A model generated the notes under the pieces. It was not told where the DNA came from, did no database searches, and saw only the letters and a program-made list of their open reading frames with translations. 55,029 bases of DNA from a virus (lineage: Duplodnaviria; Heunggongvirae; Uroviricota; Caudoviricetes). Below are positions 28,345-41,369 of this stretch, piece after piece; position 1 is the stretch's first letter; the number at the start of each line of letters is the position of its first letter. The stretch lies in the IMG/VR virus record IMGVR_UViG_2859793810_000007. One strand, given 5' to 3'. The position numbers and the translations under genes are program-made.

Positions 28345-28420
<76 letters not shown>

Positions 28421-28500: not shown

Positions 28501-28577
28501 TGGTGGCCCTTGCTGGACTTGAACCAGCGACCTGGCGATTATGAGTCGCTCGCTCTGACCAACTGAGCTAAAGGGCC
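28501..28577 (-). tRNA. tRNA-Ile2-like (anticodon CAU; could be Met)
   Basis: rc GGCCCTTTAGCTCAGTTGGTCAGAGCGAGCGACTCATAATCGC...; close to E. coli ileX-type sequence. Confidence 0.75.
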
Positions 28578-28663
28578 GGAGGCAGAATAATAACCATATG
28601 TCATCACATCTGCAAACTCATCTGACCACCAGCGTGTTTAACGTCCTGTACCGTTTTTCAGGC

Positions 28664-28776: not shown

Positions 28777-29157
28777 TCAGGGATGTTCAATATATTTGTC
28801 CATTTCTAACCGGACACCCAACATCATCAACATTCCTTCCACCACCCCCTCGGCTTTTTGTAGCTTCTTTCCTATATAACCATCTGAGCATCCATGCTTC
28901 CGCGCCAGCGTCATGAATGTCATCCCAAACACGTAGTAGTCAACCAGCAAGTCATGTAGATCGTTGTTGTTCCGGTTAAGGCGGGCCATACACCCACATA
29001 TAACCATCGCGTCATCGTCACAGCATTGCGGGCGGGATTTTACTTTTGAAGGGATTAATCCCTTAAAACCGGCAGCAATGGACGACCAGGTCACATCCTC
29101 ATGATTATTAGCCACCCACGCGCCCCAGCGCTCAAGAACCTGCTGAATATCACGCAT
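28777..29157 (-). CDS. Q: late antiterminator Q (82/933W-type)
   Basis: [34 protein letters not shown]...[17 protein letters not shown]... recognised as the Q family of phage 82/Stx phages; position directly upstream of terminator and tRNAs. Confidence 0.75.
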
Positions 29158-31965: not shown

Positions 31966-32057
31966 CGCTGTCACCTCAGAATGTCTGAAGTGGCACACTG
32001 AATTTGGCCACCTGAACAGAGGTGATATGCTCACCTCAGAACAACACAGGTGCTCCA

Positions 32058-33226
<1,169 letters not shown>

Positions 33227-33234
33227 CCACTTCA

Positions 33235-33944
33235 TTGCGCAGTTCTTCACTTGCTGAGGAAAAAACAAGCGTTCCATCCTTCTCGACATACCCATCCGTT
33301 TCAAGCAGACCACACAGCATGCCTATACGCGTTGATTTATTTGCGGAAAAAAACACACGAGGGATGAATTTGTTTTTTGCTGTGCACCCCATTAGTCCAT
33401 AACCTCGCAGGGTCTCCATGAGTGGATTTACCTGACCACGCGCCGTTGATATCAGCCAGTCCTTACCATCTCCAGAGAAGTTGTAATCAGGCAGTTCAGC
33501 CTTCATACGCTCGATCATGTATGGCTCGACGTTTGAAAACTTCACGCTCCCATTGCTAAGACTACCATCCCCGAGAAGGGAGCCGATAACCCATGCTAAT
33601 GGCTCTGAGTGGTCGCCAAAGTCACCAGTTATTTCAGGAATCCTAACGCCATTTTTGTGCCTCTTCGTTTCACTCAACCGCTTCAACCCGAAGGTATCTA
33701 TCACGCGGCGTTTCTCGCCTTTCGTGAATCCACGACTAGTGACCTCCCATAGGTGATCGCCTGCGCAATCAACATAACGACCATCTTCAAATGTGACTCG
33801 GTAAACATCTCTAACACCCTGCGGGAATATCCCAGTGACAGTTGACGGATTGCCGTCTACTGACGCCACCTGATCGCCAATTTTTACATTCCCGTGAGTA
33901 GTCCATGTCCCATCAGCTAAAAGAATAGGCTCATTCAGTGGGCA
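33235..33944 (-). other. intein remnant (Hint N-terminal block plus LAGLIDADG homing-endonuclease motifs), C-terminal splicing region missing
   Basis: block A-like CPLNEPILLADGT (compare CFAKGTNVLMADGS of a yeast VMA intein); LAGLIDADG-type motifs AWVIGSLLGDGSL (33558-33596) and IGMLCGLLETDGYV (33285-33326). Confidence 0.65.
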
Positions 33945-35060
33945 TGCCTTTCCGTGACCGTGCACACCATTGACCAGCGTCAACTCTGCCTCACGGAACT
34001 GGAATTTATCTGCCAGAGATTCCCACGGTGGATTAAACAGATACTGCTGCTTGCCGTAGAAAGCGTTGATAGTGTCCTGGTAAAACTCTCGCGCACTGTA
34101 GAGTTCTTCAGGATCGAAGTAGGATGCCGTGCCGATGTACTGCCAGATTTCATCCTCGGTAACACCGTTCATCAGGCATTCGTTGATGTCTTTGTACGGC
34201 AGAGTAACAAGACGGCAACGATGTTCACCGAGTCGGCTTACGATTTCCCTTGCGGCTTCACGACCAACATCATCAACGTCCATCGAGATGAATATTTCCT
34301 CAAACCTGTCGAGGTTGTGATACTCAAACTCAATCCACTGTTGCTTAGCGCCTTTCCCGCCACCAAACGGCACGGATAACGCCGAGATGCCGTATTGCGC
34401 ATAGCTCATACAATCAATTTCGCCTTCGCAAAGCACAACCACCCTCACGCCAGCGTCCAGAGCCTGCCATCCGAACAGGCAAGGTTCGCAATCACCTTCT
34501 GCCATAATGACTTTCTTCCCGTCCGGGCGCTCAGTGCTGATTCGCTTGACCTGCAACAACTCACCATCGCGTTTGTACGGAAGCACCAGAGCATCCAGTT
34601 CTCGTTCTCCATTCCACACCTTGCCGCTGACAACCTCGTAGCGCTTTACGACTTCTGGCGATATGCCACGCGATTGCAGGTACTCAAGATGGGATTCTGT
34701 TCTGGTAACGTAGCGGGCGATTTTCTTACGATCAGGTCTGGAGAATTTCTTCTCACGTCTGGCATCGAAATGGTGATCGTCATCCTTGATACCGAGAAAT
34801 GCTTTCGCTTCCTGCATAGCCTGATGCAGGTTAATTCCACGACATGCCATCCACAAATCAAGCATGTCACCGCCGTCTCCCTCAGCGAAATCAGCCCATT
34901 TTTTCTTGCCGATAAGGTTGACCTTAAGGCTGTTTCCCTTGTCACCGTTGACGTTACCGGCAACCCACTCATGCCCCTCTATCTTGCCGTTTGGCAACAG
35001 GTGCGGAGCCACCCTGTCAACCTGCGCCCAAAGCAGGTCGCTAAGTTCACTTGGCCTCAT
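33235..35060 (-). pseudogene. T7 gp4-like primase-helicase interrupted by an intein and 3-prime truncated by IS911
   Basis: TOPRIM motifs VVLCEGEIDCMS and ISMDVDDVG (34251-34448); P-loop-like NGVHGHGKA (33945-33968) immediately followed by Cys-initiated intein; ORF runs into IS911 right end. Confidence 0.7.
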
Positions 35061-35335: not shown

Positions 35336-35638
35336 ATGAGCAGAAAAACCCAACGTTACTCTAAAGAGTTCAAAGCCGAAGCTGTCAGAACGGTTCTTGA
35401 AAATCAACTTTCGATCAGTGAAGGCGCTTCCCGATTATCCCTTCCTGAAGGCACTTTAGGACAATGGGTTACCGCCGCCAGAAAAGGGCTCGGTACTCCT
35501 GGTTCCCGCACGGTGGCTGAACTGGAATCTGAAATTCTGCAACTGCGTAAGGCGTTAAATGAAGCTCGCCTTGAGCGCGATATATTAAAAAAAGCAACAG
35601 CGTATTTTGCACAGGAGTCGCTGAAAAATACGCGTTAA
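35336..35638 (+). CDS. IS600 OrfA
   Basis: 100 aa, identical family to copy 1; slippery A AAA AAA at 35587-35593. Confidence 0.9.
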   Translation: MSRKTQRYSKEFKAEAVRTVLENQLSISEGASRLSLPEGTLGQWVTAARKGLGTPGSRTVAELESEILQLRKALNEARLERDILKKATAYFAQESLKNTR

Positions 35639-35673
35639 TCGAACAATGGCGACAACAATTTCCCATTGAAGCG

Positions 35674-36465
35674 ATGTGTCAGGTATTTGGTGTATCCAGG
35701 AGCGGTTATTACAACTGGGTACAGCATGAACCCTCAGACAGAAAACAAAGTGATGAGCGGCTAAAACTGGAGATTAAGGTGGCACATATCCGCACTCGCG
35801 AAACATATGGAACCCGGCGGCTCCAGACGGAGCTGGCAGAGAATGGCATCATCGTTGGTCGTGACCGACTGGCACGTCTTCGTAAGGAGCTGAGGCTACG
35901 CTGTAAGCAGAAACGCAAGTTCAGAGCGACTACGAACCCGAACCACAATCTGCCAGTTGCGCCAAATCTGCTGAACCAGACGTTCGCTCCTACAGCACCA
36001 AATCAGGTCTGGGTGGCGGACCTGACGTATGTTGCTGGCATCAAAGATGTTTATACGTGCGAAATTGTCGGCTACGCCATGGGAGAGCGCATGACAAAAG
36101 AGCTGACAGGTAAAGCCCTGTTTATGGCGCTCAGGAGCCAGCGCCCACCTGCCGGGCTAATCCACCACTCTGATCGAGGTTCACAGTACTGCGCATACGA
36201 TTACCGGGTCATACAGGAGCAGTCTGGTCTGAAAACATCAATGTCGCGTAAAGGTAACTGTTACGACAACGCTCCGATGGAAAGCTTCTGGGGAACGCTG
36301 AAAAATGAGAGCCTGAGCCACTATCGTTTTAATAACCGGGATGAAGCCATCTCAGTAATACGGGAATACATTGAGATTTTCTACAATCGTCAGCGTCGTC
36401 ACTCTCGTCTGGGGAATATCTCCCCGGCAGCCTTCAGGGAAAAATATCATCAGATGGCTGCTTAA
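35674..36465 (+). CDS. IS600 OrfB, 9-aa deletion variant
   Basis: 263 aa versus 272 aa in the other copies. Confidence 0.85.
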   Translation: MCQVFGVSRSGYYNWVQHEPSDRKQSDERLKLEIKVAHIRTRETYGTRRLQTELAENGIIVGRDRLARLRKELRLRCKQKRKFRATTNPNHNLPVAPNLLNQTFAPTAPNQVWVADLTYVAGIKDVYTCEIVGYAMGERMTKELTGKALFMALRSQRPPAGLIHHSDRGSQYCAYDYRVIQEQSGLKTSMSRKGNCYDNAPMESFWGTLKNESLSHYRFNNRDEAISVIREYIEIFYNRQRRHSRLGNISPAAFREKYHQMAA

Positions 36466-36508: not shown

Positions 36509-36598
36509 CTGATCCAACCACTGCAAAAACCAGTAGCCGGCACTGCCGGCGGAGGTGCCGTAGGCAATGCCTGTTGATATTTTTTCCATCTGATACAT
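36509..36598 (-). pseudogene. pinholin 5-prime fragment (second lambdoid lysis region, truncated by IS600)
   Basis: [30 protein letters not shown] then IS600 end; N-terminus differs from the intact holin at 27759-27974, so not a simple duplicate. Confidence 0.6.
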
Positions 36599-36630
36599 AT
36601 CCCGCCCCCCCGACAGACCTGTGCTATCGG

Positions 36631-36665
36631 AAAGAAAAAAGGCCATCAGCAAAACTCTGATGGCC
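36631..36665 (-). terminator. rho-independent terminator upstream of the holin fragment
   Basis: 9-bp stem GGCCATCAG/CTGATGGCC with 7-nt loop; on the minus strand followed by UUUUUUCUUU. Confidence 0.5.
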
Positions 36666-37277
36666 TGAATCACCTTTACCAATATTGTATGAAAAAACAC
36701 GCACGACTAATTGACAATAATTTTCATTTCCATTAAAAAAGATCGCGTAGCATTCTTAATTCATGAGGAACTTTACCCGCCAGCAATCTGAGTAGCGAAA
36801 GCTGTTCATCCCCAATGTTTTTGCTGGCGGGTCCTTTTTTCTACGGTCCTCCTCCCCGGAGGGGCATTTCATTATTTTTCTAATCGTTACTGGTGAGAAG
36901 GCGGAAGAAAAAGCCAGTTCTTCGCCCCTAAATAACAGCATGATTCCAGTCCATGCAAAATCTGATTTCCAGCTCACACATACCGAGCACTGTACAAAAA
37001 ACCGCCAACCAAGGCAGTTAAGAGTGTGTTCCCGGGGTTTGCTTAGAATATTTTGTAAGTTGTCCGAAGAGATATTTACAACACCAGAATGATGCATTAT
37101 CAGTCCCCTGCCAGAGGTTCACTACGTAACCTGACCGACAATGCACCATTCTGGTGCTGAAAAAAGAGCACTGGAACTGCAACAAAACAACATCACAGAA
37201 CAGGAGATGGTAAGGAGTCAGACATTCCCACACAATATTGTGTCAGTGCAAATAACAACCTTCGTCTCAAATCTCGC

Positions 37278-37352
<75 letters not shown>

Positions 37353-37355
37353 ATA

Positions 37356-37430
<75 letters not shown>

Positions 37431-37432
37431 GC

Positions 37433-37509
37433 TGGCCCACCACCGAGGACTCGAACCTCGCACCGTCAACTTAGAAGGTTGATGCTCTATCCGGATGAGC
37501 TAGTGGTGG
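37433..37509 (-). tRNA. tRNA-Arg (UCU), second copy
   Basis: identical to 28423-28499. Confidence 0.7.
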
Positions 37510-37510
37510 T

Positions 37511-37587
37511 TGGTGGCCCTTGCTGGACTTGAACCAGCGACCTGGCGATTATGAGTCGCTCGCTCTGACCAACTGAGCTAAAGGGCC
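37511..37587 (-). tRNA. tRNA-Ile2-like (CAU), second copy
   Basis: identical to 28501-28577. Confidence 0.7.
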
Positions 37588-37776
37588 GGAGGCAGAATAA
37601 TAACCATATGTCATCACATCTGCAAACTCATCTGATCACCAGCACGTTTAACGTCCTGTGCCGTTTTTCAGGTATAAAAAAAACCGCATAAAGCGGGCTC
37701 TTTCAAATGTCCATGTCTGCTATTCGCCTCGCGGTACAGCTTTGCGAAGCGTACAAGAATTGAAGCAGTTTTTACG

Positions 37777-38199
37777 TCAAAAAGCAATAACTTTTTTCTC
37801 TATACCAAAAGCCATAACCATTGGTTTGTACAAAATAAATTCTGCCACCTTTAGCCAATGCTCAATGCGTCTTTCACAGGTTCTTAAACTCCATTTCGGG
37901 TGTGCATCATTCAGCAGTTCAGCCATTTTGCATTTGGTCATCCCCCGCCCCTCATACCGTTGCCGAAGGACGCTAATCAATCCTGGATGCTCTGCCAGCA
38001 CCTCACTTATGACCCGATCAATACATAACGCCTCTGCATCAGTACAATGCGCCAGCCAGCTCTTTTGCTTACCGTTAATCATATCCCGCAAAAAAGCCTC
38101 AAGTTCAGACTTGTTCAGACCTGCTTTTTTCATCCTCCGGAGCGCCTCGTTAATTGCCGTTTTTGTCAGCTTTTTAGAGGTCAACATCAGGTTAAACAT
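37777..38199 (-). CDS. putative late-gene regulator in the Q position (C-terminus resembles sigma-70 region 4 HTH)
   Basis: 141 aa; ...ISVLRQRYEGRGMTKCKMAELLNDAHPKWSLRTCERRIEHWLKVAEF...; sits directly upstream of the tRNA array; ATG 20 nt from the IS911 end. Confidence 0.4.
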   Translation of the reverse strand: MFNLMLTSKKLTKTAINEALRRMKKAGLNKSELEAFLRDMINGKQKSWLAHCTDAEALCIDRVISEVLAEHPGLISVLRQRYEGRGMTKCKMAELLNDAHPKWSLRTCERRIEHWLKVAEFILYKPMVMAFGIEKKVIAF

Positions 38200-38291
38200 A
38201 TTCCCCGTCTTACCGCCACTGAAGTGGCACACTGAATTTGGCCACCTGAACAGAGGTGATATGCTCACCTCAGAACAACACAGGTGCTCCA

Positions 38292-39460
<1,169 letters not shown>

Positions 39461-39529
39461 CCACTTCAAAGAATTAAAGCAACCTATTGTGACAGGCAGC
39501 GATAACAGTAAATCACAGGAAGCATAATC

Positions 39530-40294
39530 ATGGCAAAACCGGACTGGGAGGCCATCGAATCGGCATACCGGGCCGGAGTCCTTAGCCTCCGTGATATAGG
39601 CGAGAAATACGGCGTTACAGAAGGGGCTATCAGGAAGAGGGCCAAAAAGCTTGATTGGGCACGCAGTGGCGGTACGCAGGTTTGCAAAAATGGTACGCAA
39701 AAAAGGAAAGTGCGTACCAGCAGAAAGCCTGCCATTACTGGCCTTACACAAAAAAGTACGCAACTAAAAACAGAATCTACACCGGATACGAAACCGATAC
39801 GCGGAATGCGTACCGATCCCCCGACTAACCCATTCCAACCCGGTAACCAGCAGGCATTAAAACACGGTGGTTATGCCCGTCGCCTTCTGCTCAAAGATGA
39901 GGTGATAGAGGACGCTAAAGCGTTGACGCTCGAGGACGAATTATTTCGCCTTCGTGCTAACAACCTTGTCGCTGCAGAGAATATTGGTCGGTGGTTGGTG
40001 TCGCTGGAAGATGCTAATGGGGACCAGGAAAGGAAGATGCTGATTGAAAATATCAGCGCCGCCGAGAAAGCAATGATGCGCAATACAGTTCGTATTGAGT
40101 CCATCGTTGGCACGCTTGCGACGGTAGGAAAAATATTTGCTGATACAGCCTACCGCAAGGCCGCCACTGATAAGGTGTCTCTGGAGGCTGATCGTCTTCG
40201 CCGTGATGCAGGTATTGATGATGGCAATGGAGAGCGTGACCTCAATGACTTCTACTCTGACATCCAAACCGACGCTGAATCCGGCTTTACGTAG
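39530..40294 (+). CDS. terminase small subunit-like protein (N-terminal HTH)
   Basis: 254 aa; HTH LSLRDIGEKYGVTEGAIRKRAKK; overlaps start of the terminase large subunit. Confidence 0.65.
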   Translation: MAKPDWEAIESAYRAGVLSLRDIGEKYGVTEGAIRKRAKKLDWARSGGTQVCKNGTQKRKVRTSRKPAITGLTQKSTQLKTESTPDTKPIRGMRTDPPTNPFQPGNQQALKHGGYARRLLLKDEVIEDAKALTLEDELFRLRANNLVAAENIGRWLVSLEDANGDQERKMLIENISAAEKAMMRNTVRIESIVGTLATVGKIFADTAYRKAATDKVSLEADRLRRDAGIDDGNGERDLNDFYSDIQTDAESGFT

Positions 40295-41003
40295 TTTCTG
40301 GACTATGCGGGCACGTAACAAAGTGCTTTATGGTGGTCGGTCATCGTCAAAATCATGGGATGCCGCTGGCATTGCCATATTTCTGTCGAATAAATACACC
40401 CTGCGTTTTTGTTGTGCCCGTCAGATCCAGAATAAAATCGAAGAGTCGGTGTATACCCTGCTCAAAATTCAGATAGACAGGTTTGGTCTGCGGCACCGTT
40501 TCCGTATTCTGAACAACAAAATCATTAACCGGGTTACTGGCTCGGAATTTGTTTTTTATGGATTATGGCGCAACATCGAAGAAATTAAGTCACTGGAGGG
40601 GATCGATATGTTGTGGCTGGAAGAAGCCCACGCACTGACGGAATACCAGTGGAAAATTCTGGAGCCAACGATCCGTAAAGAGGGTTCGGAATGCTGGTTC
40701 ATATTCAACCCCGGACTTGTTACTGATTTCGTCTGGCGCAACTTCGTTGTTGATCCGCCCGAAGGCACTCTCATCCGCAAAATTAACTATGACGAAAATC
40801 CGTTTCTGTCTGACACCATGCTTAAGGTTATCGACGCGGCGCGACGCCGTGATCCGGATGGTTTTAAACATGTGTATGAGGGCGTTCCGGAGTCTGATGA
40901 TGATGCGGCAATTAGACTGGCCCCCTGAATCTCCAGACAACCAGTATCACTTATTTAAGTGATAGTCTTAATACTAGTTTTTAGACTAGTCATTGGAGAA
41001 CAG

Positions 41004-41369
41004 ATGATTGATGTCTTAGGGCCGGAGAAACGCAGACGGCGTACCACACAGGAAAAGATCGCAATTGTTCAGCAGAGCTTTGAACCGGGGATGACGGTCT
41101 CCCTCGTTGCCCGGCAACATGGTGTAGCAGCCAGCCAGTTATTTCTCTGGCGTAAGCAATACCAGGAAGGAAGTCTTACTGCTGTGGCCGCCGGAGAACA
41201 GGTTGTTCCTGCCTCTGAACTTGCTGCCGCCATGAAGCAGATTAAAGAACTCCAGCGCCTGCTCGGCAAGAAAACGATGGAAAATGAACTCCTCAAAGAA
41301 GCCGTTGAATATGGACGGGCAAAAAAGTGGATAGCGCACGCGCCCTTATTGCCCGGGGATGGGGAGTAA
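41004..41369 (+). CDS. insC: IS2 OrfA (InsC)
   Basis: [41 protein letters not shown]... Confidence 0.85.

Follow-up and report, generated by a model that had tools for sequence, protein, structure and literature searches.

INTRODUCTION

Three families of Q proteins are recognised in the structural literature, in which the Q protein of phage 21 (Q21) belongs to Pfam PF06530 (Phage_antitermQ) and that of phage 82 (Q82) to PF06323, and in which lambda Q and Q21 are regarded as functional analogues and not as structural homologs (PMC9388147). The DUF1133 family (PF06576), which is the subject of this study, is not among the three; it has been reported from 13 Shiga toxin (Stx) phages and was there called a Q antiterminator by HHpred only (PMC8136144). 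For Q21, structures have been solved (PDB 6P18, 6P19 and 6JNX), and Yin, Kaelber and Ebright (10.1101/651190) relate its fold to region 4 (R4) of sigma factors, especially those of the extracytoplasmic function (ECF) group, describe binding of the Q-binding element by a helix-turn[loop]-helix, give the H2-H3 linker a share in the torus at the RNA-exit channel, and set out the Q cassette as a promoter, a pause element and a terminator. Here we analyse a DUF1133 gene in a 55,029-nucleotide (nt) stretch of DNA from a virus of the Caudoviricetes (IMG/VR record IMGVR_UViG_2859793810_000007; the whole stretch is called the window hereafter). The open reading frame (ORF) at positions 37777-38199 of the minus strand is very probably the 3′ remnant, amounting to about three-quarters, of a prophage gene of the late antiterminator type that was split by the insertion sequence (IS) IS911, and most likely a non-functional relic.

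RESULTS

The ORF at 37777-38199 is a 5′-truncated DUF1133 gene

The ORF runs from an ATG to a stop codon over 140 codons, and its end is separated by 190 nt from the second transfer RNA (tRNA) array of the window (37278-37587), which lies downstream, so that its position directly upstream of that array is as given in the preliminary description. The PF06576 model matches it with an E-value of 6.4e-73 and 244.3 bits (gathering cut-off 23.1), over profile positions 45-176 of 176 only, and PHROG 753, named 'anti-termination protein Q-like', matches with E=1.1e-53 over positions 47-188 of 189; there was no NCBIfam model for the 140-amino-acid (aa) ORF. An intact ortholog of 555 nt and 184 aa is present in Escherichia coli FDAARGOS_944 (L001:5889-6443) and is 99.5% identical to the window copy at the nucleotide level. 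The ATG of the ORF corresponds to the internal Met45 of this 184-aa protein. Between the tRNA genes and position 38219 the two sequences differ by three single-base changes and are otherwise identical, and at the protein level the window copy shows an arginine-to-cysteine substitution (MTKRK to MTKCK). At 38219/38220 the alignment breaks into IS911, and the first 112 nt of the gene (37 codons and one base) are absent. Upstream of the ATG the frame remains open for six codons (GGKTGN) until the terminal inverted repeat of IS911 is reached. That is, the remnant covers 37777..38219 on the minus strand, from codon 38 (partial) to codon 184 and the stop codon, and it is the first 37 codons, or approximately 44 positions of the PF06576 model, that the window copy lacks.

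The peptide lost by the truncation, MIYPTNTGKSGEHLRLTTLESVWIQGKLRMWGRWSYI, carries most of the residues that are invariant in DUF1133 (W23, G26, K27, L28, M30, W31, G32, R33, W34, S35 and I37 in an alignment of 16 full-length members). With it has gone LxTLESVWIQGKLRMWGRWSYI, the most conserved N-terminal motif of DUF1133, which in alignments pairs with residues 6-45 at the N-terminus of Q21. Among the matches listed, full-length DUF1133 proteins measure 174-192 aa and the shorter ones are labelled partial or are partially aligned, and no native protein of about 140 aa with its own start in an uninterrupted locus was found among them. The length of 140 aa is therefore an artefact of truncation, and the earlier suggestion of a small late activator loses its support. 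The same truncated sequence has already been deposited as 'DUF1133 family protein, partial [Shigella flexneri]' (P0035), and gene calls of the exact 140-aa ORF occur in 382 index blocks of public assemblies; where close relatives are named, they are S. flexneri. Genomes of S. flexneri also hold a second, full-length DUF1133 gene with 85-86% protein identity (L004, L005).

The IS911 copy that truncates the gene occupies 38220..39468 on the plus strand, with exact matches to the left and right inverted repeats (IRL, starting at 38220, and IRR, ending at 39468) and ORFs for orfA and orfB. The element had previously been thought to have replaced the native promoter; the IRL does begin only 20 nt upstream of the ATG, but the start codon and 37 codons were lost, and not just the promoter. 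Insertion of IS911 typically generates a 3-bp target duplication. Here the flanks are CAC and AAG, with no such duplication, and beyond the element lies a terS/terL terminase operon on the plus strand, pointing away from the DUF1133 fragment. The opposite-facing operon and the missing duplication together indicate that the locus has been rearranged. A sister assembly (CP026772.1; L055) shows the simple ancestral insertion state, in the order YbcO/DUF1364, a 68-aa ORF with the 5′ end of DUF1133, IS911, and the same 140-aa 3′ fragment, and the 5′ fragment joined to the IRL is found as well in S. flexneri SFBU1023 (L047). A GTG at the junction is common to both DUF1133 halves, and we read this shared triplet as the 3-bp target duplication of IS911.

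The intact gene occupies the Q position of lambdoid prophages

In the intact prophage the order of genes is DUF1367, DUF1364/YbcO, DUF1133, four tRNA genes, class II holin, RrrD endolysin, lysis protein (Rz), dedA, small terminase and large terminase. The place of DUF1133, between nin-region genes and the lysis cassette, is the classical lambdoid Q position; the window retains only the downstream half of this context. Phage Rac-SA53 has the same layout, with a 63%-identical homolog annotated q. The view that the ORF encodes a Q-position protein thus holds for the family, which sits in the Q slot and matches a Q-like PHROG, but the window ORF is not the whole gene. By megablast the DNA is present in 1,675 of 5,426 complete E. 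coli genomes and is always annotated 'DUF1133 family protein'. When 1.84 billion cluster representatives were searched by phmmer with a full-length member, only 73 clusters matched, of which many were fragments, and among those 73 clusters there was no bridge from DUF1133 to other Q families. The family is compact and essentially confined to Enterobacterales.

DUF1133 proteins are remote homologs of Q21

A profile built from 16 full-length DUF1133 proteins was compared with the PDB and matched the Q21 chains (6JNX and 6P18) at E=1.7e-8 in two stretches. Residues 14-51 of DUF1133 align with residues 6-45 of Q21 through a W..G.L..WG.W.Y motif, and residues 94-180 align with residues 56-154 through C-[TN]-D-[DE] followed by the helix-turn-helix region. 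Moreover, each of the 16 full-length members tested matched PF06530 (best E=3.6e-12), and the intact ortholog scored 29.4 bits, above the gathering cut-off of 26. The truncated window ORF fell below that cut-off (23.4 bits, E=5.9e-5), and by phmmer against the PDB it returned noise only (phycoerythrin at E=0.07, Q21 at E=0.78). DUF1133 and the Q21/PF06530 family are remotely homologous. That DUF1133 might represent a different Q family, as first proposed, is right insofar as it is distinct from the PF06530 Q proteins, and is qualified by this remote relationship.

The similarity extends to the fold. In an AlphaFold2 model of a full-length member (P0002, 89% identical), residues 100-175 are predicted with confidence (block means 77-96), and the closest solved structure to the DUF1133 model is Q21, with sigma R4 domains next. 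The resemblance of the C-terminus to sigma region 4, noted initially from the sequence, is therefore borne out at the level of fold, but not by the sigma70_r4 Pfam models (PF04545 and PF08281), which gave no match to the ORF at E<=1. The models for lambda Q (PF03589) and Q82 (PF06323) likewise gave no match at E<=1, either to the ORF or to the other Q protein of the window at 28777-29157.

A conserved promoter-like and terminator cassette follows DUF1133 genes

The DNA downstream of DUF1133 was compared in the 45 sequences that were long enough for scanning, comprising 44 related loci (one genome per species plus L001 and L002) and the window copy. In 37 of these 45, a conserved -10-like element with the consensus TAnGCT (search pattern TAnG[C/A]T with three further, partly specified bases) lies 0-42 nt past the stop, and an intrinsic terminator starts at most 160 nt from the stop codon in 39 of the 45, the window copy being one of the six without a call. 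The terminator usually starts 39-54 nt after TAnGCT. On the other side, TTGACT/TTGCAA is conserved 32-35 nt upstream of TAnGCT, whether that position is coding or beyond the stop codon, and a -10-like hexamer (TAAATT, TAGATT, TATGAT and others) is found 10-13 nt upstream of TAnGCT. The best-scoring -35/-10 pair stands at this fixed position in 31 of the 36 unique related loci compared by anchoring on the motif, and the genera concerned range from Escherichia and Citrobacter to Serratia, Yersinia and Xenorhabdus.

Given this -35/-10 pair, TAnGCT would be placed at roughly the transcription start to +6. In Q cassettes, for instance at lambda PR′, the sigma-dependent pause element is typically found from the start to +6. 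By analogy, TAnGCT is a candidate sigma-dependent pause element; alternatively, it could be an extended promoter -10, as it is often preceded by TG. The presence of a qut-like, promoter-proximal pause element downstream had been proposed as a check on the preliminary description, and a candidate for such an element does appear in the 37 sequences. The cassette that follows DUF1133 genes across genera of the Enterobacterales appears to be what is expected for a Q cassette.

In the window, a scan for consensus sigma-70 promoters and terminators made no call in the stretch that separates the gene from the tRNA promoter, and the cassette was recognised through comparison of the 45 downstream sequences. 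It comprises, all on the minus strand, a -35-like hexamer TTGCTT (37782..37787), which overlaps the last codons of the gene at the TTGACT/TTGCAA position of related loci and may serve as a promoter element; a -10-like hexamer TTCAAT (37759..37764), 17 nt after the former, a candidate PR′-type -10 that is weak in the E. coli/Shigella subgroup; the element TACGCT (37748..37753), corresponding to the TAnGCT consensus and possibly either a sigma-dependent pause element or a true -10; and a tR′-like intrinsic terminator (37676..37704), about 50 nt past TAnGCT, whose stem differs from that of the intact ortholog by a G-to-T change at 37683.

The second Q gene of the window is of the Q21 type

The other Q gene of the window (28777-29157, minus strand) had been assigned to the 82 type. 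Its protein gives a full-length match to PF06530 (E=4.2e-54, profile positions 1-118 of 118) and matches the solved Q21 directly (E=3.9e-8); membership of PF06530 makes it a Q of the Q21 type, not of the 82 type. The two Q-position proteins had also been described as unrelated. In pairwise terms this stands, since BLASTP between them found nothing at E<=100 and no similarity between the DUF1133 ORF and the window's own PF06530 Q is detectable in this way, but at the profile level they are related (Q21 at E=1.7e-8 and PF06530 in 16 of 16 members). Comparison by hhalign of the DUF1133 alignment with this single other Q reached E=3.8e-4 and 36% probability, which is too weak alone, and the placing of both proteins in a Q21 superfamily relies on their indirect connection by way of PF06530 and Q21.

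The sequences of the two Q loci are wholly different from the stop codon up to and including the terminator, and from 'CCTGAAAAACGG' onward they are near-identical, with a promoter-like TTTGCA-18-TATTAT followed by tRNA genes. A Q-specific segment followed by a common module would be expected if every Q type carried its own cis cassette with it.

The window copy and its surroundings show signs of decay

The minimum free energy of the 86-nt terminator region is -18.5 kcal/mol in the window versus -25.5 kcal/mol in the intact ortholog. Scanning of the minus strand over 37800-38320 revealed no promoter-like site upstream of the fragment, and all that stands before the ATG of the ORF is a G-rich stretch with poor spacing.

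Downstream of the cassette, the second array consists of four tRNA genes (CAU, Arg-UCU, Thr-UGU and Gly-UCC; 37278..37587, minus strand) detected with ARAGORN, which would be the first late-operon cargo past the Q cassette, and Rfam models over 37200-38300 found tRNAs only. The promoter-like TTTGCA-18-TATTAT just upstream of the array (37597..37626, minus strand) belongs to the module that is near-identical after both Q genes; an identical site stands at 28587-28616 (minus strand), between the terminator of the first Q and its tRNA array. Judging from these sequences, the prophage tRNAs may be expressed independently of Q. The CAU tRNAs at 37511-37587 and 28501-28577 (both minus strand) are called Met by ARAGORN, and the identical gene in the RefSeq ortholog is annotated tRNA-Ile; it is possible that this tRNA decodes AUA after lysidine modification, as the ileX type does. 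Between the promoter-like site and the end of tRNA-Gly, the only difference between the two modules is in tRNA-Thr (37357-37430 and 28345-28420, both minus strand), where the second array lacks one G near the 3′ acceptor end (GTAGTC-GCACCA vs GTAGTCGGCACCA), with ARAGORN lengths of 74 nt in the second array and 76 nt in the first.

Further along, an ORF at 36509..36700 (minus strand) includes the 5′ part of a gene for a phage 21-type holin S: PF04971 positions 1-26 of 64 match the 26 residues at its end, and its upstream part is non-homologous. The holin gene ends where an adjacent IS3-family element begins (ORFs 35336-36465), which we take to be IS600-like. The orfB transposase of this element (35674-36465, plus strand) has 263 aa versus 272 aa in an S. 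flexneri copy (L047 1260-2078), and lacks nine residues within ...LTYVATREGWLYLAGVKHVY... (...LTYVAGIKDVY... in the window). The IS600-like copy in the window may be defective.

Several observations concern the history of IS911 at this locus. In all eight fragment-bearing assemblies sampled (L048-L055) the fragment adjoins the IRR, with the IS oriented like the gene. In the window it adjoins the IRL at exactly that nucleotide, meaning that IS911 is flipped relative to these assemblies. An inversion by homologous recombination between IS copies was considered and rejected, because recombination within the IS cannot swap the end that abuts a flank; the flip needs a second transposition (e.g. the element inserting anew at the same GTG, with a subsequent IS-IS deletion) or else an assembly error. 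The genes dedA and Rz1, located upstream of the IS in L051 and L052, are absent from the window. In L053, L054 and L050 (about 1880-3403), the IS911 beside the fragment is itself interrupted by a reverse transcriptase gene of the group II intron type (RVT_1 and GIIM).

The window holds two copies of IS911 in direct orientation, 5 kb apart (31986-33234 and 38220-39468, both plus strand). Neither has matching 3-bp flanks (GTC/TTG and CAC/AAG, respectively), so that both stand at rearrangement junctions joining fragments of different prophages. The copy ending at 33234 cuts the 3′ end of a primase-like ORF (33201-35060, minus strand) that matches Toprim_2 (E=2.5e-11) and, after a GHGK P-loop-like motif, weakly matches Hint (PF05203) and LAGLIDADG (PF14528) domains; this suggests a gene for an intein-bearing primase-helicase. 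On the far side of the second copy, the small and large terminase genes (39530-40928 and 40959-41369, both plus strand) belong to the prophage type in which the intact ortholog is found, and the large terminase ORF ends early, immediately before an IS-type orfA, presumably IS2-like from its sequence.

DISCUSSION

By homology with Q21, the intact members of DUF1133 may act in antitermination, and a plausible course of events can be outlined. The 184-aa protein would bind, through its sigma-R4-like helix-turn-helix, a site at the late promoter just past its own gene. It would then load onto RNA polymerase paused at the -10-like element and travel with it, and the modified polymerase would read through the terminator some 50 nt downstream into the tRNA, lysis and morphogenesis genes. 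In the window, IS911 split the gene after codon 37; the start codon was lost together with the N-terminal motif that is most conserved, and the rest can be read from Met45. The surrounding cassette is decayed too, with a point mutation in the terminator, a holin cut by the IS600-like element, and a terminase operon reversed beyond IS911.

A number of points weigh against this picture. Full-text searches for DUF1133 and PF06576 found no experimental antitermination test of any member of the family in the literature. The P0002 model has an overall mean predicted local distance difference test (pLDDT) score of 62.9, and its N-terminal 43 residues and an insertion are of low confidence. This insertion of about 40 residues (approximately 52-93) stands where Q21 has about 10 (46-55), with predicted helices at 57-69 and 74-85 (two or three in all; pLDDT 47-62), and the DNA-binding loop is 12 residues shorter than that of Q21; together these differences imply that the mechanism of Q21 may not transfer exactly. 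The window hexamers, TTGCTT-17-TTCAAT, are weak and were not called by the consensus sigma-70 scan. As to the loss of function, the ORF of the window is open and keeps the whole sigma-R4-like domain.

Three other explanations were weighed. The open ATG-to-stop frame, the sigma-R4-like C-terminal domain and the calling of the 140-aa ORF in many assemblies would all agree with an intact small late activator, or a new Q family, that has lost only its promoter to IS911. The alignment to the intact ortholog refutes an intact small activator, however, and we consider this explanation extremely improbable: the ORF covers PF06576 positions 45-176 only, its frame continues upstream through homologous codons to the very end of IS911, full-length relatives among the matches listed have 174-192 aa, and the missing 37 codons are found on the other side of IS911 in L055. 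A truncated product could on the other hand still be made and have a residual role, for instance a dominant-negative one at the Q-binding site or on RNA polymerase that damps late transcription of related prophages. Such an N-terminally truncated protein surviving as a DNA-binding decoy is the only non-trivial reading for the window copy, and would be in line with the retention of the entire confident C-terminal domain, the persistence of an identical ORF in 382 index blocks of assemblies, and the second, full-length DUF1133 gene of S. flexneri genomes. We nevertheless judge it very unlikely, given that no promoter-like site was seen upstream (37800-38320, minus strand), that the G-rich stretch before the ATG is poorly spaced, that the family's most conserved motif is missing, and that the terminator mutation, the arginine-to-cysteine substitution and the truncated holin indicate decay alongside; moreover, persistence of the ORF is equally well explained by clonal descent.

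The third explanation concerns the family and not the fragment. DUF1133 proteins could be late regulators other than processive antiterminators, such as sigma-R4-like activators or sigma appropriators acting at the downstream promoter, in which case the terminator would merely insulate the upstream operon. The sigma-R4-like fold would suit such a role as well. Yet sequence homology to Q21 takes in the WG-W motif at the N-terminus as well as the C-terminal domain, and every member tested matches PF06530. In most loci the terminator lies 39-54 nt past the -10-like element, between the promoter and the late genes, which is sensible only if it is suppressed, and each Q type of the window has its own promoter-terminator segment. 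We therefore regard regulation without antitermination as unlikely, and retain a probable antiterminator-type function for the intact family and the status of a split, most likely inactive remnant for the window copy.

The family, its Q-like annotation and the exact fragment are already in public resources, and the locus itself offers no discovery; at the family level, profile and fold link DUF1133 to Q21, and the downstream cassette is conserved. Two annotations are corrected: the ORF becomes a pseudogene fragment truncated by IS911 instead of a small regulator, and the window's other Q moves from the 82 type to the Q21 type. The wider value is modest, in that a widespread Q-slot family outside the recognised Q families is now tied to Q21, and the conserved promoter, pause-like element and terminator make an antitermination test straightforward to design.

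Compared with described systems, DUF1133 proteins resemble region 4 of the sigma-70 family (e.g. sigmaE R4, PDB 2H27) and have no sigma region 2, so that they are not sigma factors. With lambda Q and the Q of phage 82 they have in common the functional slot and the logic of the cassette, that is, Q gene, PR′, pause element, terminator and late genes. With Q21 they share sequence and fold, and differ in the insertion and the DNA-binding loop; in our placement, the insertion would fall in the H2-H3 linker of Q21, which is described without residue numbers in 10.1101/651190. Of the segment that forms the torus in Q21 (H1-H2 linker, H2 and H2-H3 linker), it is the stretch equivalent to H1/H2 that aligns with DUF1133 (residues 14-51 with Q21 6-45). 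On balance we favour, with some reservation, the idea that DUF1133 is a fourth, uncharacterised lineage of lambdoid Q proteins, homologous to Q21, in which the segment that we place in the nozzle region has been replaced by an insert of about 40 residues predicted to be helical, the DNA-binding loop has been shortened, and the gene is followed by its own PR′-type cassette (TTGACT/TTGCAA, a -10-like hexamer, TAnGCT, and a terminator about 45 nt further on). In that event, DUF1133 could reveal how far the architecture of a Q21-type nozzle can vary.
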